This document shows positions 1 to 8,977 of a DNA stretch of 64,000 nucleotides, piece after piece; positions within the stretch are counted from its first letter, which is position 1, and every line of letters starts with the position of its first letter. The translations under genes were made by a program, and so were the position numbers. This stretch comes from Armatimonadota bacterium (GTDB lineage: Bacteria; Armatimonadota; SYMT01). The stretch covers positions 448,001 to 512,000 of the forward strand of contig JAWLHY010000001.1 in the NCBI GenBank assembly GCA_041690135.1, in the 5' to 3' direction. The notes beneath the pieces were generated by a model, which did not search any database, was not told where the DNA came from, and saw only the letters and a program-made list of their open reading frames with translations.

Positions 1-3000
1 GGTCTCATCCACGCGCGTCACGCGGCGGGACAATACCTGCCACGCTGCGAGCAGCGACTCCGCGGAGACCCCCTGCAGGCCCGCCTTGCGATCAAGTCGC
101 TGTGCGGAGAGTGTCTCCGCAATCCGTCTGAGGTCGTCGGCGGGACGGCGATCCGCCTCCGGATGCCAAACGTGGAGATCGCCGGAATCCAAGGCCAGGA
201 GCACGCGTTTGCCATCGGAAGTGAACCAGGCTCGTCCGCCGTCCTGGCCGATGCGGGTAGGCACGGTCAGGGCCTCTCCCGTGCGGACGTCCCAGAGTTG
301 TGCCATTCCCTGAGCAGTGAGCGTCACGAGGCGAAGACCGTCCGGGCTGAACTCCGCGCCGGCAAGTGCGCCGGCATGTCGCAGGACCGGCGCCAGCGGT
401 TGCCGGTCGGCGATGCGCCACACGCGGACCGACCGGTTCTCCCCACAGATAACCACGAGCTTTCCATCGGGACTGAAGGCGGCATGGACTACTATGCTGT
501 CGTGTTCCAGCGGAGGTCCGATTTGCCGGCCGGTGTCCGTGTGCCAGAGCCGCACCGCACGGTCACCGCCTCCCGTGAGCAGCAGGCTACCGTCAGGATT
601 GAAGGCGAGGGTCCGGGCATCCCGGTGATGGACGTGGTAGGCGCGAACGTCATCCCGGAGCCGGCGATGGAGCAACACCTGTCCCGCATCCCAGACGGCG
701 GCCATACCCTCTCCCGCGGTGCTGACGGCGACGAGTGGACGGTGATCTCCGCGGTTGAGGGTCGGCAGCGCGATCTCTCGGGTCTCCAGTTCCCAGAGGT
801 AGACGGACCCTTGCTGGCCCACGCACAACAGGCGTCGGTCGTTCGCGGTGAACTGGAGGTGCTGAATCGTTTGCGCCTGTACCACGGTGCGACCGATAGG
901 CCGGGCAGAGGCCACGTCCCACACGCGTACCTCGCCTCCCGGAGAGGCCACGGCCGCCTGCCGCCCGGCGCTATCGAGCGCGACCGCCACCACCCGAACT
1001 CCCGGCTGGATACGAGGCCCGACCGGCTTACCGGTGCCCACCTGAAGCACCCGGATCGAACCGTCGGCCTCCGCCGAGAGCACTCGCTGCCCATCGCGCG
1101 AGGGACTCAGGGGGAGGCGGGTTACAGGATGGTGCGACTGAACCTTCGCCCCCGCGGCGGTCAGATCCCACAGAAAGACCAGGCCCTCACCGCGCGAGAG
1201 CAGGACTCGATCCCGCTGCATGTCGAGGGCCGCACTCCAACCCGGTCCCGGAAGTGTGCGGGAAGGAGCTACTTCTTCTCCCGTAAGCGGGTGCCACAGG
1301 CGGACGGTTCCCTCCGCCGTGACGGTCTGCAGCCGCGTGCCCACGGGGTCGAACGCCAGGCTGAGGACGGCCTGGTCATGCTTCATGACGCGGCCGGTCT
1401 GCGCGCCGGCCACCAGGTCCCACACCCGGACGTGCCCGCCGCAGGCCGTGGCCAGGCGCCGGCTGTCCTCGCTGAACCGGAGGGCATGGATGTTTCCTTC
1501 CGGAATCGACAGGTGGAGACGGCCGGTGACGACTTCCCACACCAGGGCGCCGTGGCCCTGCCGCCCGACGAGCCAGCGCCCGTCCGGCGAAAAGCGCAGG
1601 TAATCCGGCAGCGCCTTCATTACGTGCGGGAGAGGCTCTACTCCGCCGCGGGGCCAGAGCCGGATGTTACCATCTTCAACGGCCGTGGCCACGAACTGCC
1701 CATCGGGACTGAAGGTGGCATATCTCACCGGTTTCCCGTCTTCCAGCGTAGGGCTCGCGGACCGGCCGGTTTGTAGGTCCCATACCTGCGACCGGGTGGT
1801 GTAGGCGGCTACGACCCGGGTGCCATCCGGACTGAACTCCGCCGACCGTAGTTCGCCGGCGTGACGCAAGGGGGCCCCGAGGGGCTCGCCTTGCGCCGTA
1901 TTGACGACGTGGATCGCCTCCTCTTCGCCCGCCACCAGGAGGCGCCGGCTATCCGCCGAGAAGTAGAGCGAACGAAGCGAGCCGTCGTAAGTCAGAGTCG
2001 GGCCGATTTGCCGGCCCGAGCGGGTGTCCCACATGCGGACGGTCCGGTTTGCGAACGCGCCGGCAGCGCGGGTTCCGTCGCCACTCAGGATCAGATCGAC
2101 GGCGCGCGCGTCCGCACCCCATACCTGGCGGACCCTGGGGCTTTCGCGCAGAAGGGAAGCGATGCGCTCCCGGTGCGCTCGCGCCTGCGCATCCGTTCCT
2201 TTCCGTTCGTCCAGTTCCAGGGCCTGTACCATCCAGAGGAGGCCTTCGTAGGGACGTCCCTCCGCCACCAGGCGGTTGCCGTTGGCTACCGACACTCGCA
2301 CGAGGCTTTCCCGGTTCTCCGCCCGTTCTCGCTCGGCGGTCTTCTGGAGACGAAGGGCCCGGCGCCGTCCCAACTCCGCCATGTCGGTCGCCTCCTCGGC
2401 CCGGAGACGGAGGTCATCGGCAACGTGGCGTTGCCGGTTGGCTCGCAGTTCCGACTGCCGGGCGCGCTCGGCCTCCCGGGTCGCGCGGTTCCGTTCTCGG
2501 CGTATGTTCTCCAGCGCATAGCGCAATTGGGACAGTGCCCGCTCCTTCTCCTGGAGGGCCGCTTCCCGTTCCGCCAGCGCCAGGCGTAGCCGTTCCGCCA
2601 GCCCGTGGGCCTCCCGTTCGTTGGTGACGGCCCAGCCCGCGAGGCCGGAAACCAGCGAAAGGACGACTCCGGAGACGAGCGCGGCGCGCGTGAGGCCCCG
2701 GCGAAATGCCGCCTGCTGGCGTCGCTGCTCCGCATGGGGCAGGTGTTCCCGGATCCAGGTCCGATCGAACACGGACGCGTAAATGCGGTTACGGGGCCGG
2801 AGGTATTCTCCCAGGGGACGTACCACGCCGGCCAGTTGCAGCAGGGCGGCGAGACGGTTGGTCTCGCGGTCTCTGATGGACTGCCCCTCGTGAATCCGGG
2901 CGTAGAGATCGAGCAGCGCGGCACGGTCGGCATCGGCCTGTAGCAGGCGCTCATGCACCAGGTGCAGGTTCGGATCGCGCTTGCGGGCCCCCGGTGCGAA

Positions 3001-3960
3001 GAAGAGGCTCCGGCATACCCGGTCCACGAGGTCCTGATGATCGGACCGGGACCAGAGAGGCCGGCGCCCGGAGAGCGCAGTCCGCAGGCGAGTTGCGAGG
3101 GAACTGCCAGAAGGTGGCTTCGCCGCACGCACCTCGACCAGCGCCTCCGCCACCGCCTGGCAGAGGCGCTGGGTCAGGTAGGGCTGTCCGGCCGTCCAGT
3201 AGAGGATCCGGGCGAGAAGATTTCGCGCGTGCTGTGACGGGTTGCGGGGTGTACCGGGTGCAATACCTGCCCCGCCAGCTTCAAGGCCCGGGGCCAGGGG
3301 CCAGGCTTCTTCCGCGGTGAAGTCCGTCAACTCGATCCGGCGCCCCACGTTGAAAGGGGTGGAGCGCGGATCGCGGATCAGGTCCGCGGGAATGGCTACG
3401 CCGAGCAAGCAGAAGGTCATGCGGGCGGCGCCGGGGTTCTCGGCCCGGCGATTGTGCAGTTCCCGGATGCCGGCGAAAAACTCGTCCGAGGAGAATGGGA
3501 GGCTCTGCACCGCGTCGATCTCGTCGACGAAGACCACCAGATCGGGCGCGGTGTCGGCAGCAGGAACGGTCGAGGCCGCCGTCTCCAGGGCCGCCATGAA
3601 CCGGCGAAACGGTCCCAGGTGAAGGTGCTTACTCCAGTACCGGGCCAGTTCGGTTTCCAGGCCCAACTGTTCTCCCACCAGATCCAGCAGAGAGCGATAC
3701 CACTGCTCCGCGGTAAGGTTCTTGCCGACCGCGGTGAGATCGAGAACCACCACGCGGCGTCCCTCGCGGCGCAGGCGCGCGGCAGTTCGCACCATCAGGG
3801 AAGATTTGCCCATCTGCCGCGAGGTGAGGAGATAGCAGAGCTCTCCCCGCGAAAGGGCGGCGAACAACTCCGCATCGGCCGCGCGTTCGATGTAACAGGG
3901 GGCGTCAGGCCGGAGCGTGCCGCCGGTTACGAAGAAGGGGTTCGGAAGTTCGACGGCCAT
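1..3960 (-). CDS. AAA_35 (STAND-like) NTPase - TM helix - coiled coil - multi-WD40 protein, >1320 aa, 3' end outside window (absent from ORF track)
   Basis: Manual translation from ATG 3960: MAVELPNPFFVTGGTLRPDAPCYIERAADAELF...LTSRQMGKSS (Walker A), LVVFVDEID (Walker B), PFNVG; hydrophobic AALVSGVVLSLVSGLAGWAV at ~2626-2685; many WD-type repeats downstream. Antisense shadow ORFs at 163, 1861, 2605, 2953 and 3454 share its register and the frame is still open at base 1. Confidence 0.9.
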   Translation of the reverse strand, partial: MAVELPNPFFVTGGTLRPDAPCYIERAADAELFAALSRGELCYLLTSRQMGKSSLMVRTAARLRREGRRVVVLDLTAVGKNLTAEQWYRSLLDLVGEQLGLETELARYWSKHLHLGPFRRFMAALETAASTVPAADTAPDLVVFVDEIDAVQSLPFSSDEFFAGIRELHNRRAENPGAARMTFCLLGVAIPADLIRDPRSTPFNVGRRIELTDFTAEEAWPLAPGLEAGGAGIAPGTPRNPSQHARNLLARILYWTAGQPYLTQRLCQAVAEALVEVRAAKPPSGSSLATRLRTALSGRRPLWSRSDHQDLVDRVCRSLFFAPGARKRDPNLHLVHERLLQADADRAALLDLYARIHEGQSIRDRETNRLAALLQLAGVVRPLGEYLRPRNRIYASVFDRTWIREHLPHAEQRRQQAAFRRGLTRAALVSGVVLSLVSGLAGWAVTNEREAHGLAERLRLALAEREAALQEKERALSQLRYALENIRRERNRATREAERARQSELRANRQRHVADDLRLRAEEATDMAELGRRRALRLQKTAERERAENRESLVRVSVANGNRLVAEGRPYEGLLWMVQALELDERKGTDAQARAHRERIASLLRESPRVRQVWGADARAVDLILSGDGTRAAGAFANRTVRMWDTRSGRQIGPTLTYDGSLRSLYFSADSRRLLVAGEEEAIHVVNTAQGEPLGAPLRHAGELRSAEFSPDGTRVVAAYTTRSQVWDLQTGRSASPTLEDGKPVRYATFSPDGQFVATAVEDGNIRLWPRGGVEPLPHVMKALPDYLRFSPDGRWLVGRQGHGALVWEVVTGRLHLSIPEGNIHALRFSEDSRRLATACGGHVRVWDLVAGAQTGRVMKHDQAVLSLAFDPVGTRLQTVTAEGTVRLWHPLTGEEVAPSRTLPGPGWSAALDMQRDRVLLSRGEGLVFLWDLTAAGAKVQSHHPVTRLPLSPSRDGQRVLSAEADGSIRVLQVGTGKPVGPRIQPGVRVVAVALDSAGRQAAVASPGGEVRVWDVASARPIGRTVVQAQTIQHLQFTANDRRLLCVGQQGSVYLWELETREIALPTLNRGDHRPLVAVSTAGEGMAAVWDAGQVLLHRRLRDDVRAYHVHHRDARTLAFNPDGSLLLTGGGDRAVRLWHTDTGRQIGPPLEHDSIVVHAAFSPDGKLVVICGENRSVRVWRIADRQPLAPVLRHAGALAGAEFSPDGLRLVTLTAQGMAQLWDVRTGEALTVPTRIGQDGGRAWFTSDGKRVLLALDSGDLHVWHPEADRRPADDLRRIAETLSAQRLDRKAGLQGVSAESLLAAWQVLSRRVTRVDET

Positions 3961-4042
3961 GGTGTTCCACTCCGTAGCTGGAAATGTACCGCGCTCTTTC
4001 GAGAACGCGGGCCGCAGTGCGGCGCCCTACGCGAGGCCGGCG

Positions 4043-5911
4043 TTAGCTCATGGGCGGGCAGCCATCGCGCGCCAGCCGGCGCCGGAGGTACGCGGCGTCG
4101 AGCTGGCAGCGGAAACGCGCGTCACGCGGAGCGAGGCCGGCGAGTATCCCGGCACTCCGAAGGCGATAGAAGTGCCCTTCCGGCGGCGGAGCCCCTCGCG
4201 CCAACAACTGGTCCACCGTTGCACACAGCTCCGGGTCCTGACCGAGAGCGGTGGCGAGGCGCTGAAGATGGTCCTGAAAAATGCCGCTCCCCTCGTCCGC
4301 CATCCGCAGGATCGCCCCCACCGTCAGCCCGTGATGGGATATTTCGTGGAAGGCCCGCCGGATCAGGTAGGGATGGCCACCCAGGAGGCCCATCAACGCC
4401 GCCAGCTCCGAAGGAGAGAGGGAGGAGAGACCGTAGCGAACCGCCAGGTCCGCGACCTGCGCCGGTTCGAAGTCGCCCACTTCCAGGCGGAGCCCCACGT
4501 TGAACGGGGATTGGTTCAGGTCGGTCACGAACAGGTGCGCTTCGGTGGCATAGGTAAGCGCGAGAGAGAGCCGGGACCACGGCCCGTTGGGGTCGAGGGC
4601 GCGCTCGTTGTGCCAGGAACGGAAGAGCCCAAATACCTCGCTGGCGTAAGGATAGGTGAAGAGCCGGTCCACCTCGTCCAGGGCCCAGACCAGGGGAGTG
4701 GAGGGGTTCGTGAGCACCTCCCGGCGCAGATAGCGACGCAGGTTCTGGTTGGGCCCGAACTGCGCGTCCCAGGTATCGCGCGGAAAGGTGTTCAACTCCA
4801 ACTGCTCCGCGAGACTTCCGGCCAGTGCCTGGAGAACGCCATCGAGCGAAGAGAGCTGTGCGGCGGAAAGGGTCTGGAGATCGGTGAAGACGACGCCGGC
4901 CCCCTGGCGCCGGGCTTCCTGGAGACCACGGGCCAGGAGGGAGGTCTTGCCGGTCTGGCGGGGACCCTTGATGAGCACCAGACTCTCCCGGCGCGCGAGC
5001 GCGCGCTCCAACTCGGCGTCCACCGTCCGCCGCACGTAAAAGGGCGAGTCGAGCGGGACGGCTCCTCCCAGAGACTCCAATACCACCCGGGAATCCGGTT
5101 CCGCGACTCGGACCGCGGGGGACGGGACGGGGACGAACCAACCGGTCTCGGCGCGCGGAGTGTCGCCCGCCTGCGCTTCGCGGATCGCCTGGAGGAGTGC
5201 TTCGCTTTCGGCTGAGGGCAGCCGCCCGAGCTCGTGCTGGAGGACACGAGCCATTTCCCGGTAATGCTGCAGCGCGAGGGCCGGCCTGCCGGCGGCGAGG
5301 TAGAGCCGGCAAAGGCGGGCGTGCTCCTGTTCGGAGAGGGGGTTGAAACTGATGGCGCGGGCGGCAAGCTCAATCGCCGTCTCCCACTCCCGTCGCTCTT
5401 CCAAGAGATCGAGCAGTTCCCGCAGGCAGGCGTCTTGCTGGGCCGCCAGCCGCACCTGCTCCGGAACCAGCCATTCCGCGCTGTAGCCGTGGAGCAATTC
5501 TCCCTGGTAGAGCGCCACCACCCGGCGCAGCTCTTCGCAGCGGACTGGGGGAGGGGCCGCACGCGCCCTTGCGCAGGCCGTCTGGAATTCGGCGACGTCC
5601 GTTTCTATCCGGGTCGCTTCGAGCCATACGGAGTTGCGGTCGGCATGCAAGATCTCCTCCGGCTGGATTCCCAGGGGGGCAAGGTCGTGTCGCAGAGCCC
5701 AGAGAGCCGTACTGAGACTATTGCGCCCGGCGTTTTCCGGACATTCCGGCCAGAACCGCTCGATCAAGTCGGCCCGGCGGTGGGCCTGCGGGTAGTAACC
5801 GAGGTAGGCGAGCAAAGCCCCGGTTTTCTCCGTACGGAAGCGGCAGACGCTGCGATCAGCCACACGGGCAACGAGCCCACCGAACAGCTCGAGGCGAAGG
5901 CGCAAAGACAA
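4043..5911 (-). CDS. SARP-type wHTH/BTAD transcriptional activator fused to AAA_35 NTPase
   Basis: LELFGG...LLAYL...FWPE...NSLSTALWALR; LYQGELLHG..EWL; PLSEQEHARLCRLY (BTAD); GGAVPLDSPFYVRR, GPRQTGKTS, LDEVD, SPFNVG, GGHPYL. Confidence 0.92.
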   Translation of the reverse strand: MSLRLRLELFGGLVARVADRSVCRFRTEKTGALLAYLGYYPQAHRRADLIERFWPECPENAGRNSLSTALWALRHDLAPLGIQPEEILHADRNSVWLEATRIETDVAEFQTACARARAAPPPVRCEELRRVVALYQGELLHGYSAEWLVPEQVRLAAQQDACLRELLDLLEERREWETAIELAARAISFNPLSEQEHARLCRLYLAAGRPALALQHYREMARVLQHELGRLPSAESEALLQAIREAQAGDTPRAETGWFVPVPSPAVRVAEPDSRVVLESLGGAVPLDSPFYVRRTVDAELERALARRESLVLIKGPRQTGKTSLLARGLQEARRQGAGVVFTDLQTLSAAQLSSLDGVLQALAGSLAEQLELNTFPRDTWDAQFGPNQNLRRYLRREVLTNPSTPLVWALDEVDRLFTYPYASEVFGLFRSWHNERALDPNGPWSRLSLALTYATEAHLFVTDLNQSPFNVGLRLEVGDFEPAQVADLAVRYGLSSLSPSELAALMGLLGGHPYLIRRAFHEISHHGLTVGAILRMADEGSGIFQDHLQRLATALGQDPELCATVDQLLARGAPPPEGHFYRLRSAGILAGLAPRDARFRCQLDAAYLRRRLARDGCPPMS

Positions 5912-5926
5912 AAGGAAACCCCAGTT

Positions 5927-7429
5927 TCAGGTTGTCGGAGCGGTGGACACTTGCAGTTCCCGCAAGCGCCGGGCCGCCAGTCGCGAATGGTGCGTGTCGA
6001 GGTTCATGGCTACGGCCTGCTGCCAGGCGACGACCGCGTTGTGGTAATCCCCCGATGCCAGGAGACACTCGCCGTAGTAATAGAGCGCGCCTGGCCGGAA
6101 TACCGGGTCGGGGTAGGTCTGGAAGTAGGCCTCCCAATGTTCCTGGCAGCGCGTTAGATCCCCCAGCGCATAGCACGCTCTTGCCACCATCGCCCGGCAG
6201 AGCGACTGCGTTTGCCGGTCGGCACTGAAGTGCGGCGCCTGGGTCTGCACTTCCCATATCTTCCGCTGTGCCTCGTCCGTGCGCCCCAAGGCGGCGAAGT
6301 ACCAGGCCTGTGCCGCCGTGCACCAGAGCGACAACTTGTCGTCCCCGTCCATTTCCGGCAGCGCACGATCCAGGTAGTCGATGGCGAGCTCCAGGTTTCC
6401 CTCTTCGGCTTCCAGCCAGGATAGCCCCAGGTCAATCGTGGCCCGGCCGCGCCGCTCCAGATCGGGTTGCGGGTAAGGCTGCGCGGCTCGGGACGCTTCG
6501 AAGCCCTCGCGGGCCTCCACGAAATGACCCATAATGCGCAGGCATTCCGCGCGAGTCATGTGGGCTAGCCGGCCGGCGGAGGGGTGGAGCGCCGCGGCCT
6601 CCTCACAGTGCCGGATCGCGTCCTCGAGCTTCCCGTGCTTCATCTCCACGTCGGCCAACTGTGCCAGCAACTCGCCCGTCAGGTGCTTGTTGCCGGTTTC
6701 GCGCGCCAGTTCGTAACCCTTGCGCCGGTGCACCTCGGCGGCCTCCAGGTTCGCCACACCGGAGTAGCCGAGTGCGGCGATGGAGTGCGCCATGATCAGG
6801 AGCTGCTTGAGGGGCTTGAGCGGAATCGCCTCTTCGGCATACCGGATCGCGTCGGAAGGACGGCCCGCGTTATAGGCGGCCAAACCAAGCTGCAGCAGGG
6901 CCTGGGCTTTAACCAGCGTGTTCCACTCCGGGATGAGGGGCAGGGCCTTGCCGTAGGCCTCACAGGCCAGCGCATACTTGTGCTGTTTGTCGAGAAAGTT
7001 CCCGCGGGTCAAATAGAAGCCGGCATCAAGCTGCGCTCCGGCCAGGACCTGCTCGGCGCGGCGCTCCTCGGCCTGCGACTCCGCCTGTTGGCCCAACCCG
7101 TCCAGGCAGTCAGCGAGCAGCAGGCGCTGGCGGGCCTCGTCCGCCGCCTTCGGCTTCCTCGCCAGTAACTGTCGGCAGAGGTCGGCCGCTTCCTGGTAGC
7201 GGCCTTCCTGCATATAGCTCCACACCAGGCCCTGCCGCCACTCCGCACGCGCCCGGTCCCCGAAAACCGAGGGCAGGCGCGTTACCAACTCGCGCAGTTG
7301 GCGCAGACGCTTCTGGTCGCCCCGGGTCTCCAGGAAGACCGCAAGCATACCCAGGCCCAGAAATACGCCCAGCTCGTAGACCCCGAGGATCAAGAGCAGG
7401 AGCCGGATCAGCGCGGGCCAGTCGGTCAT
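5927..7429 (-). CDS. Membrane-anchored TPR protein
   Basis: N-terminal hydrophobic segment followed by about ten TPR-like helical repeats. Confidence 0.85.
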   Translation of the reverse strand: MTDWPALIRLLLLILGVYELGVFLGLGMLAVFLETRGDQKRLRQLRELVTRLPSVFGDRARAEWRQGLVWSYMQEGRYQEAADLCRQLLARKPKAADEARQRLLLADCLDGLGQQAESQAEERRAEQVLAGAQLDAGFYLTRGNFLDKQHKYALACEAYGKALPLIPEWNTLVKAQALLQLGLAAYNAGRPSDAIRYAEEAIPLKPLKQLLIMAHSIAALGYSGVANLEAAEVHRRKGYELARETGNKHLTGELLAQLADVEMKHGKLEDAIRHCEEAAALHPSAGRLAHMTRAECLRIMGHFVEAREGFEASRAAQPYPQPDLERRGRATIDLGLSWLEAEEGNLELAIDYLDRALPEMDGDDKLSLWCTAAQAWYFAALGRTDEAQRKIWEVQTQAPHFSADRQTQSLCRAMVARACYALGDLTRCQEHWEAYFQTYPDPVFRPGALYYYGECLLASGDYHNAVVAWQQAVAMNLDTHHSRLAARRLRELQVSTAPTT

Positions 7430-7433
7430 GGGT

Positions 7434-8477
7434 TTACCGGACCCGGAAGGTCTTCAAGGGAGTGTTGGCGCCCCTGGAGACGGTGTAATGATCGCCTTCG
7501 ACCCGGACGCGCAGGAACTCACCCGAGCACTTCTCCTCCATATTCGCGATGAACTCCGGCTGGGTGTTGTCGTTCGGACCGGTGGTGATATTGCGATGGA
7601 GCTGGAAGATGCCCTCCAGCGTGGGGCTCTTCTTCAGCGTGGCATAGGTCGCCGCTGCTCCGCCCTTCTTCGGCCCGTTGCAAATAACCGCGCACCGTGG
7701 CTTGATCGCCTCGATCACGGCCGGGTTGTTGCTGGAGTCGGAGCCGTGATGGGTGACCTGGAACAGGTCTACCTCTCCCACGCGGTTCTTCGGGCAGGTC
7801 AGCTTGTGCTCGATATTCCAGGTAAGATCGCCGCAGTTCAGGAAGTCGAACCGTCCATACTTGAACAACAGCGCGATGCTTTTGCCGTTATCCGAGTTAT
7901 CCACCGGCTTGGAGGGGTGGCGCTTGCAGGAATGGCCCAGCTCCTTCTTGCCCTCGCCGAGGACTTTCCCCGAAGCAGCCACCACCTTGAGCTCGGCCGG
8001 CACCCCGCCGCCATTCAGCGGCAGGCGATCGCCCGGCTTCAGCATCGAGGTCTTTCCGCCGCTGGCCCGCTTGTAGGCCGCCATCAGGATAGGGAATCCG
8101 CGCGGGTCTTCCGGCAGGCTCTCCGGAATACCACGGTCCCAGTAGTGCCGCACCGGCATCAGCTTGGCGAGGTACTCGATTCCGCCGTAGTGGTCCGTGT
8201 GCCAGTGCGTGGTGACATAGTGGTCGATCTGGCTCAGCCCGGCCACGTAGCGGGCGGCATGCTCGATCCGCTTGGCGTCCCGTCCGTCCTCGCGGGGCCA
8301 GCCGCAATCGACGAGCACGGATTCCCCGCGAGGGGTGACCATCAGCGTGGCGGCGCCGCCTTCCACGTCGATGAAGTAGATGTCGAGGGGGCGGACCGGG
8401 GCCGCCTGGGGTCGGGAGTTGGAGGAAAAGGCCAGTGCGGCGGCGACGCCGACGGTGATGGCGATGATCCGTTTCAT
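7434..8477 (-). CDS. Secreted MBL-fold metallohydrolase (ComEC/Rec2-like)
   Basis: Signal peptide MKRIIAITVGVAAALA; FIDVEGGAATL, THWHTDHYGG, GDL, HHG motifs. Confidence 0.9.
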   Translation of the reverse strand: MKRIIAITVGVAAALAFSSNSRPQAAPVRPLDIYFIDVEGGAATLMVTPRGESVLVDCGWPREDGRDAKRIEHAARYVAGLSQIDHYVTTHWHTDHYGGIEYLAKLMPVRHYWDRGIPESLPEDPRGFPILMAAYKRASGGKTSMLKPGDRLPLNGGGVPAELKVVAASGKVLGEGKKELGHSCKRHPSKPVDNSDNGKSIALLFKYGRFDFLNCGDLTWNIEHKLTCPKNRVGEVDLFQVTHHGSDSSNNPAVIEAIKPRCAVICNGPKKGGAAATYATLKKSPTLEGIFQLHRNITTGPNDNTQPEFIANMEEKCSGEFLRVRVEGDHYTVSRGANTPLKTFRVR

Positions 8478-8602
8478 AGGCACACTCTTGAGGAAAGGGA
8501 CTACCGAAGGTACATAGCCCGGACTCTTAGTACAGAATTGTGCGTGCGGCGGGAGAATCCTCGTACCCTACGGCGATAGAGGCCCGCTTTTTGATTCCAT
8601 CG

Positions 8603-8902
8603 ATGCAACTCACCACCAAACAACGCGCGTACCTGCGCAGCCTGGGGCAGGAGCTTCGGGTCCAGCTACACATCGGTCACGAAGGCTACACGGAAGGAGT
8701 CCAGCGCTCGCTGGAAGAGCTGTTCAAGCGGCGAGAACTGGTAAAGGTCCGGGTGCTGAACACCACGGAAGAAGAGCCGAAGGAAGTGGCCGAGCGGATG
8801 GCGGAAGCTGCCCGGGCCGCCGTGGTCGGCGTGGTCGGCAAAACGTTCGTCCTCTACCGCCCGAACCCCGATCTTAAGGAGCCGATCGTGCTTCCCCGTT
8901 AA
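8603..8902 (+). CDS. yhbY: CRM-domain RNA-binding protein YhbY
   Basis: MQLTTKQRAYLRSLG...IGHEG...ELVKVRVL...VGKTFVLYR; start moved to ATG 8603. Confidence 0.92.
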   Translation: MQLTTKQRAYLRSLGQELRVQLHIGHEGYTEGVQRSLEELFKRRELVKVRVLNTTEEEPKEVAERMAEAARAAVVGVVGKTFVLYRPNPDLKEPIVLPR

Positions 8903-8904
8903 AG

Positions 8905-8977
8905 GATAAGGAACCGGGGAAGATAACGAACCGGGAAGATAAGGAACCGGGAAGATAAGGAACCGGGAAGATAAGGA
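8905..8977 (+). repeat. Purine-rich 16-bp tandem repeat GATAAGGAACCGGGAA, ~4.5 copies
   Basis: Units start at 8905 (17 bp), 8922, 8938 and 8954, with a partial unit at 8970. Confidence 0.95.

Follow-up and report, generated by a model that had tools for sequence, protein, structure and literature searches.

How do two neighbouring bacterial proteins work together if all that they share is a nucleoside triphosphatase (NTPase) module, while one is built like a soluble transcription factor and the other like a membrane receptor? The question is raised by two genes at the beginning of a 64,000-nucleotide stretch of DNA from an Armatimonadota bacterium (contig JAWLHY010000001.1, positions 448,001 to 512,000), here called the window; the source genome has 9.1 Mb and 67% G+C. 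Both genes are on the minus strand, adjacent, co-oriented and head to tail. REG, the output subunit (4043-5911), fuses a SARP-type DNA-binding region to a full AAA_35 NTPase module, and REC, the sensor subunit (1-3960), has an AAA_35-type module followed by a predicted transmembrane (TM) helix and a WD40 region. REG is thus an output without a sensor and REC a sensor without an output, therefore the two are complementary halves. We suggest that the two genes are one representative cassette of a very large, unnamed family: split switches that span the membrane and resemble STAND (signal transduction ATPases with numerous domains) proteins, in this case wired to transcription. We give this reading a probability of roughly 55%.

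The first-pass annotation of the window had proposed a circuit running from an extracytoplasmic sensor to transcription, and this interpretation is supported as far as computation goes. The receptor has one predicted membrane span with a positive-inside bias, so that a cytoplasmic WD40 region is not predicted; the pairing recurs in five pairs in this genome, twelve in eight related genomes and at 54 of 76 receptors elsewhere; and a complex model of the two NTPase modules reaches an interface score (ipSAE) of 0.65 against 0.40 for the best control.

The REC frame is open at the start of the window, with no stop codon, and extends 750 nt further in the genome. The protein has 1569 amino acids, of which the window holds the first 1320 codons (L015:9251-13960 in full). 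The gene had been noted as absent from the open reading frame (ORF) track, which is correct, because the track drops open-ended frames. Residues 1-422 (2695-3960) form a cytoplasmic AAA_35-type module according to Pfam and profile comparison; the Pfam match covers residues 14-224 and model positions 4-211, with 73.6-74 bits against a cut-off of 27. A motif scan places Walker A (RQMGKSS, residues 48-54) at 3799-3819, Walker B (DEID, residues 146-149) at 3514-3525, PFNVG (residues 202-206) at 3343-3357 and GQPY at 3178-3189. The module is followed by a single TM helix, predicted for residues 423-445 (2626-2694) with a Kyte-Doolittle (KD) value of 1.95, and the basic motif RRQQAAFRRGLTR stands directly before the helix, where the first-pass annotation had seen basic residues; this juxtamembrane motif (RRQQAAFRRG) is at 2695-2724. 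The same annotation had then named a coiled coil and WD40 repeats. The repeats are recovered by many WD40 and beta-propeller models of Pfam at residues about 620-1270 (151-2103), a region predicted to be extracytoplasmic, while the coiled coil is a putative reading from composition only: the stretch at about residues 446-560 (2281-2625) is charged, consists to 78% of R, E, K, D, Q, A and L, has no proline and is read as a stalk. A single-sequence AlphaFold2 (AF2) model of the WD40 region is all-beta with 49 strands; its confidence is low (pLDDT 59.8) and we use it solely for this statement. The last 269 amino acids, beyond the window, are tetratricopeptide repeats (TPR) by Pfam. NCBIfam has no match for REC.

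REG has 622 amino acids and a TTG start. Its residues 1-100 (5612-5911) are a putative OmpR/SARP-type winged helix-turn-helix (wHTH), a DNA-binding domain; residues 104-244 (5180-5602) are assigned to BTAD (Pfam, 57.2 bits against a cut-off of 22.1) and residues 283-610 (4082-5065) to the AAA_35 module (PF14516, 265.3 bits against a cut-off of 27, model positions 4-330), which an AF2 model and Foldseek also support. The wHTH assignment comes from a profile of 13 homologous N-termini headed by REG, positions 4-263 of which match residues 9-271 of EmbR with an E-value of 2.7e-25; the same profile matches the SARP module of AfsR at 3.8e-22, and both alignments cover wHTH plus BTAD from end to end. 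The motifs are again found by scanning: Walker A (RQTGKTS, residues 318-324) at 4940-4960, Walker B (DEVD, residues 412-415) at 4667-4678, PFNVG (residues 469-473) at 4493-4507 and GGHPY at 4367-4381. Two adjacent co-oriented genes with intact AAA_35 modules and with RQxGK[S/T]S, DE[I/V]D and PFNVG in these places are what had been described from the letters of the window, and the description holds in both proteins. Translated in all six frames, the 64-kb window contains RQxGK[ST]S twice and PFNVG twice, all within REG and REC. REG terminates with its AAA_35 module; it carries no repeat sensor, a hydrophobicity scan gives no TM helix, and Pfam finds neither NB-ARC nor a C-terminal TPR in it. 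NCBIfam matches to REG are all below threshold, the AfsR equivalog scoring 15.8 bits against a cut-off of 1430.

Homology between the two NTPase modules extends over their full length. With hhalign they share 337 aligned columns at a probability of 100 and an E-value of 5e-40 (28% identity), and the module of REC is therefore complete, if divergent, and reaches as far as the TM helix. Walker A (GK[ST]S) and Walker B (DE[IV]D) are present in both and are invariant or at least 90% conserved among 62 REG and 80 REC sequences; therefore both modules are probably active. GGHPY in REG and GQPY in REC sit where one expects the motif that we take to be of GxP type. AF2 models the REG module with high confidence (pLDDT 94.3, pTM 0.90). 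In Foldseek this model comes closest to two archaeal ATPases, PAB2304 and SSO1545 (TM-score 0.59), and its further neighbours are the STAND proteins CED-4 (0.57-0.58), Avs3 (0.54), Apaf-1 (0.52) and MalT (0.51), and also ORC/Cdc6 (0.42-0.51). The modelled fold is at the boundary between ORC and STAND. No DAP3 or mS29 chain is among the best 50 Foldseek matches, which is weak evidence. At the sequence level the REC profile finds nothing in the Protein Data Bank, and the REG profile finds P-loop-level matches only, with a best E-value of 0.0022.

A complex of the two modules was modelled with a 62-sequence alignment for REG and an 80-sequence alignment for REC. The ipSAE values are 0.65, 0.65 and 0.66, against 0.00, 0.40 and 0.00 for the controls. 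The runs share at least 78% of their contacts and the pLDDT of the partners is at least 78. In the predicted interface REG contributes residues 114-127, 153-172 and 190-203 (model numbering; +269 for the protein) and REC the face that carries Walker A (48-60) and Walker B (147, 150). The model supports binding between REG and REC and does not show it.

Pairing is the rule within the source genome. The AAA_35 model matches 14 places in a profile search, and these are five pairs, a tandem of TIR-AAA_35 genes that lacks a receptor, and a solo receptor. All five pairs keep one order, first a gene with a full-scoring AAA_35 module and then a long gene with a weaker N-terminal one; the upstream gene carries BTAD in three of them and TIR in two. 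All six receptors of the genome have the architecture AAA_35-TM-WD40. Match coordinates reveal 12 more pairs in 8 of 40 related genomes. AAA_35 pairs are present in six of six genomes of the same family and in few others of the phylum.

For a wider view, 80 loci were taken from contigs of one genome per species (Acidobacteriota, Armatimonadota, Verrucomicrobiota, Chloroflexota, Actinomycetota and a Beggiatoa relative) and their ORFs were sorted by two hidden Markov models (HMMs) built from the copies of this genome. They contain 85 receptor-type ORFs, of which 76 are evaluable after setting aside nine with less than 1.3 kb of upstream DNA. A REG-type gene lies directly upstream of 54 of the 76, that is, 52 by a distance filter and two that overlap the receptor (L059, L079); the spacing in these loci is often an overlap or tens of nt. 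Three further receptors lie behind another receptor and three have a REG-type gene on the opposite strand. The same overlapping pair is found on RefSeq plasmids of Nostoc flagelliforme and Ca. Chlorohelix allophototropha, where both genes are annotated only as 'AAA-like domain-containing protein'. There are 45 plasmid records of AAA_35, 20 of them from Nostoc.

The family to which these receptors belong is very large. When 8,000 candidates were scored against REC residues 1-450, more than 2,511 were relatives at E<=1e-5, with identities of about 50-55%; WD40 repeats are present in most of these, and TPRs take their place in some. Among 1.84 billion, the number of cluster representatives matched by a profile of the REC module is 12,533 at E<=0.001, the weaker matches including REG-type modules, and 5,875 at E<=1e-30. 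The hosts are soil Acidobacteriota, Armatimonadota, Verrucomicrobiota and Chloroflexota together with filamentous cyanobacteria, and the identity across phyla is about 50%. In public annotation the genes are called 'AAA-like domain-containing protein' or 'WD40 repeat protein' only.

Some copies depart from the standard arrangement. The solo receptor paralogue of the genome (L017:13204-16455, plus strand; G000:C7:155204-158455), which has no adjoining REG gene, contains unusually regular WD40 repeats (Pfam WD40 489.6 bits in 12 separate stretches), as if they had been recently homogenised. The two tandem TIR-AAA_35 genes without a receptor (L016:4163-7797, minus strand; G000:C16) stand after an acetyl-CoA synthetase-like gene and before one for a GAF histidine kinase; the upstream one of the two also has a nucleotide cyclase domain. 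A gene for a patatin-like phospholipase (L019:5344-6450, minus strand; G000:C4) is divergent from another SARP-type cassette of the genome, and patatins are frequent effectors in conflict systems. On the Nostoc flagelliforme plasmid pNFSY06 (L101) the AAA_35 pair is cut short, flanked by IS5, IS630 and IS481 transposases and adjoined by a CHASE2-domain fragment; this arrangement suggests decay or shuffling of cassettes on cyanobacterial plasmids.

The signals of membrane topology are constant too. A hydrophobic window of KD>=1.6 (19 residues, median 2.43) is found right behind the module in 76 of 76 family receptors of sufficient length. The uncharged core has about 20 residues, and its position is kept and its sequence not. 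No further window of KD>=1.8 follows the TM segment in any of the 76. The 15-residue flanks of the segment contain on average 5.29 K plus R N-terminally and 3.45 C-terminally; 59 receptors have more of these residues on the N side, 14 have equal numbers and three have fewer. Weak evidence comes from cysteine, which makes up 1.48% of the cytoplasmic module and 0.57% of the part behind the helix. One relative has a PPC domain, typical of secreted proteins, behind its WD40 part. Because the NTPase must be cytoplasmic and there is a single span, the stalk, the WD40 propellers and the TPRs are predicted to be outside the cytoplasm, and the sensor part of REC is probably extracytoplasmic.

The sensor also evolves differently from the rest of the receptor. 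Two tandem receptors in one locus have cytoplasmic modules that are 89% identical and post-TM regions that are 44% identical, and further receptor pairs show 88% vs 52% and 82% vs 49%. The sensor part thus diverges much faster than the cytoplasmic NTPase module.

The output side, on the other hand, is exchanged. Among 56 REG-type N-termini of the 80 loci Pfam finds Pkinase in 22, TIR_2 in 17, Trans_reg_C in 15, BTAD in 13, Guanylate_cyc in two and Trypsin_2 in one. A local HMM finds TIR in 18 of the 56, ten of which have a kinase or SARP too. Our local classification of the same 56 gives kinase alone in 13, kinase plus TIR in nine, TIR alone in eight, SARP in 12, SARP plus TIR in one, OmpR-type wHTH alone in 11, trypsin in one and no domain in one. 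DNA-binding outputs are therefore found in 24 of 56 (13 SARP-type and 11 wHTH only). The pair had been called a kinase-free system, which is right for this copy only and fails for the family, as 22 of the 56 REG-type proteins carry a Ser/Thr kinase. In a FastTree phylogeny of 62 REG modules the output type changes 17 times (minimum 6, shuffled mean 38.5), so output types are clustered, yet have been swapped several times. The three SARP copies of the genome form one group with a support of 97.

STAND proteins usually have an N-terminal effector and a C-terminal repeat sensor on one NTPase. This layout is displayed by the pair jointly, or by the fused protein P0025 (kinase-REG-REC-TM-WD40 in one chain; one protein, one contig), and by neither partner singly. 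A search for longer forms yielded five long proteins with a REG-type module, and P0025 is the one REG-REC fusion among them; the fusion is rare and hence weak evidence. Tandem REC-type modules are more frequent, with two modules in 24 of 259 family proteins and three in one of 259. Such single chains include P0004, P0008 and P0127-P0135. In P0004 an LptF/LptG-like multi-span segment separates the two AAA_35 modules, and the cyanobacterial P0008 has a PPC domain at its end. According to a precomputed Pfam list, P0124 (1465 aa) combines BTAD, NB-ARC, TPR and a C-terminal AAA_35 in one chain, and to judge by these domains it looks like an AfsR-like regulator fused to a REG-type module.

How does this pair compare with known systems? 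REG resembles STAND activators of the AfsR, MalT and GutR type, which also have an N-terminal DNA-binding output (SARP in AfsR) on a STAND-type NTPase. AfsR has the order SARP-NB-ARC-TPR (structures 8k60, 8jke, 8hvr) and its nucleotide-dependent assembly controls transcription. However, in these activators sensor and output are in one soluble chain, while here they are split over REG and REC. The NTPase of AfsR is an NB-ARC and that of REG an AAA_35 to which no sensor arm is attached; a second protein, which has a paralogous NTPase, carries the sensor and is predicted to place it across the membrane. Regulators of the ToxR/CadC type and PknD-type sensors (Ser/Thr kinase-TM-beta-propeller) have an extracytoplasmic sensor, a single TM helix and a cytoplasmic output, and wHTH outputs are common ground as well. 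They have no NTPase modules, in contrast to the present pair, in which sensor and DNA-binding domain are on separate proteins linked by paralogous NTPases. A functional analogy may be sought in the paired sensor and helper nucleotide-binding leucine-rich repeat receptors (NLRs) of plants and in NAIP/NLRC4, where two related NOD-type NTPases, one sensing and one executing, co-assemble and are often encoded side by side. These are eukaryotic, wholly intracellular and built on NB-ARC or NACHT, whereas REG and REC are bacterial AAA_35 proteins; in paired NLRs each partner usually keeps its repeats, while here REC spans the membrane and REG has none.

Among bacterial systems nSTAND2 comes near. It is described as a mobile two-gene operon in which both products have STAND-type cores, with a proposed hetero-multimer, variable effectors on one partner and NTPases nearer to CR-ATPases and DAP3/mS29 than to classical STANDs (Kaur et al. 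eLife 2021, PMC8195603). REG and REC are likewise two adjacent genes, each with a STAND-type core. However, the NTP-binding motifs of nSTAND2 are described as eroded in one of its two modules, which is also the one with GT4 or HEPN (PMC8195603), whereas in REG and REC alike Walker A and B are intact and SARP, wHTH, kinase and TIR serve as outputs; neither GT4 nor HEPN is among the 20 Pfam families matched by the 56 REG-type N-termini. The passages on nSTAND2 contain no TM helix or extracytoplasmic sensor, both of which are predicted for REC. The pair is set apart from nSTAND2 by this description, not by sequence. A 'Npun2340/2341 family' is listed in the MNS clade of STAND (Leipe et al. 2004, as cited in PMC8195603). 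Npun2340 and Npun2341 are consecutively numbered Nostoc genes, and AAA_35 is abundant in Nostoc (20 of the 45 plasmid records). SSO1545, the second-closest solved fold to the REG module, is presumably a member of the MNS clade as well. AAA_35 may be this family, which is a lead only. A literature search on AAA_35, PF14516, Npun2340 and STAND/TIR/WD40/SARP two-gene systems found no paper on this pair, only the papers of Kaur et al. being pertinent; the relevant part of PMC7159879 deals with iSTAND and EACC1 systems, not with an AAA_35 pair, and AAA_35 goes unmentioned in passages of PMC13581612.

We suggest the following mechanism. A ligand outside the cytoplasm would alter the conformation or clustering of REC, and the change would reach its cytoplasmic NTPase module by way of the TM helix and of the basic juxtamembrane motif, which is conserved. 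The REC module could then assemble with the REG module through an AAA+-like interface, with REG on the P-loop face of REC. NTP-dependent co-oligomerisation would gather the SARP domains, which would bind repeats at target promoters and activate transcription. Translocation of the sensor, ligand binding, the direction of the signal, recruitment as against release, and the target genes are all inferred here.

STAND and NLR-type switches are known as intracellular sensors, and in this pair the sensor is predicted to be beyond the cytoplasmic membrane. What is new within the STAND kind is the division of the switch between a receptor protein and an output protein that have nothing but the NTPase module in common. 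If this is right, it would account for the coupling, in many little-studied soil bacteria, of cues from outside to transcription, phosphorylation or NAD-cleaving outputs without histidine kinases, and the SARP and wHTH versions should permit a reporter-gene readout for the whole family. It can be speculated further, tentatively and at clearly less than even odds, that paired AAA_35 modules are a general, so far unrecognised mode of transmembrane signalling, alongside two-component, ECF/anti-sigma (extracytoplasmic function) and ToxR-type systems. A fast-evolving propeller or TPR ectodomain would drive NTP-dependent hetero-oligomerisation, and the outputs (transcription factor, Ser/Thr kinase, TIR, cyclase, protease) would be freely swapped. 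Such a system would amount to an inside-out NLR whose sensor is outside the cell.

Several points weigh against the split-switch reading. The first-pass annotation had given REG a SARP wHTH-BTAD region; the BTAD half stands by Pfam, but for the wHTH half Pfam gives no family at E<=1 in residues 1-110, Trans_reg_C included, and the assignment is carried by the homologue profile against EmbR and AfsR. Direct repeats as possible SARP sites are absent from the two spacers of the locus, and target genes were not found either. No REG gene is present in the locus for 16 of the 76 evaluable receptors, and REG-type genes also occur without an adjoining receptor, for example in the C16 tandem pair. The topology is based on hydrophobicity and charge counts, not on a trained predictor, and the stalk behind the helix is itself arginine-rich, with 3.45 K plus R in its first 15 residues. 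The ipSAE level of the complex is reached by 58 of 80 solved complexes and two of 110 mismatched pairs, an approximate calibration as our own alignments were used; the score is a model confidence and may partly reflect the likeness of AAA+ paralogues to solved oligomers. Co-divergence of the two genes speaks for the reading, as the distances among REG proteins follow those among REC proteins at r=0.73 (49 pairs; none of 2000 shuffles as high), but this correlation is confounded by shared ancestry; within the five pairs of the genome r=0.60 is equalled or exceeded by five of 120 re-pairings, a weak test. The fused P0025 could be the result of a lost stop codon. Finally, TIR and trypsin outputs, the many diverse copies per genome, patchy spread, a location on plasmids beside insertion sequence (IS) elements and fast-evolving sensors are as compatible with a role in immunity or conflict as with ordinary signalling.

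This last point leads to the alternative that survives best, in which the same machine is a counter-invader or cell-death system. The outside sensor would detect components of phage or foreign cells, SARP and wHTH outputs would induce defence genes, and TIR, trypsin and kinase outputs would act directly. We consider such a role possible yet doubtful. The outputs include TIR in 17 of 56, trypsin in one of 56 and kinase plus TIR in nine, and several copies with different outputs are present in one genome, a pattern described for conflict systems by Kaur et al. (PMC8195603, PMC7159879). The patchy spread at about 50% identity across phyla, the 45 plasmid records with IS elements beside a Nostoc copy, the sensors that diverge far faster than the NTPase module and the patatin gene divergent from one SARP cassette point in the same direction. 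However, plain DNA-binding domains account for 24 of the 56 outputs and a kinase on its own for 13, which is typical of signal transduction, and known anti-phage STANDs sense inside the cell, while here the sensor is predicted outside. In PADLOC-DB 2.0 REC matches no family and REG matches by short P-loop stretches only (best E-value 8.5e-06, 22.7 bits, 61 residues), so no model matches past the P-loop region; the TIR paralogues of the genome match only TIR models. Nor are the neighbouring genes defence genes or conserved: those of the other cassettes in the genome (DUF1552, patatin, histidine kinase, peroxidase, ZnuA) have no common theme.

REC could instead hold REG inactive at the membrane through the NTPase contact and release it on a trigger, in the manner of an anti-sigma factor. 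This would produce the same pairing and the same predicted interface, REG has all of a soluble STAND activator except the sensor, and REG-type genes do exist without an adjoining receptor. We nevertheless find sequestration unlikely, as the NTP motifs are intact in both modules throughout the family, which suggests an active joint cycle and not passive tethering, and as release is impossible for the single-chain tandem forms.

Improbable, too, is that the hydrophobic segment is no membrane span, or a peripheral anchor only, so that the receptor would be cytoplasmic like a classical NLR with its partner as helper. The stalk after the helix is indeed highly charged, and the WD40 sensors of known STANDs such as Apaf-1 are cytosolic. 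Yet 76 of 76 receptors keep one uncharged segment of about 20 residues with a median KD of 2.43 at a fixed position, and the positive-inside bias is seen in 59 of 76; the cysteine contents (1.48% vs 0.57%, weak) and the relative with a PPC domain go the same way. That REG and REC are merely neighbouring paralogues from a tandem duplication, working independently, has very little probability left: they are paralogues and some family members stand alone, but the order REG-then-REC is kept at 54 of 76 receptors across phyla with tiny or negative spacers, the halves are complementary, the interface passes its controls and the genes co-diverge.

REG and REC probably form one transcription unit, and the surroundings may extend it. 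The spacer from the REG stop codon to the REC ATG (3961-4042, minus strand) has 82 nt, with GGAG about 10 nt 5' of the ATG and no terminator-like site. Upstream, a gene for a 500-residue TPR protein with a hydrophobic N-terminus (5927-7429, minus strand) ends 15 nt before REG and may be co-transcribed with the pair. A metallo-beta-lactamase-fold gene (7434-8483, minus strand) ends 4 nt before the TPR gene and may be the first gene of the same unit. The TPR protein was considered as part of the module and rejected, as a search of the ORFs in the 80 other loci found no relative of it at E<=1e-5.

Further upstream, at 8905-8977, the window contains a tandem array of 4.5 copies of the 16-nt unit GATAAGGAACCGGGAA with 94% matches. 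It lies directly downstream of a small yhbY-like gene (8540-8902, plus strand), in a 900-nt region of lower G+C. The array was rejected as a promoter element of REG and REC, since it sits outside the promoter of their transcription unit. The nearest named relatives of the proteins in the window are from Chthonomonadaceae (Armatimonadota) and Acidobacteriota.

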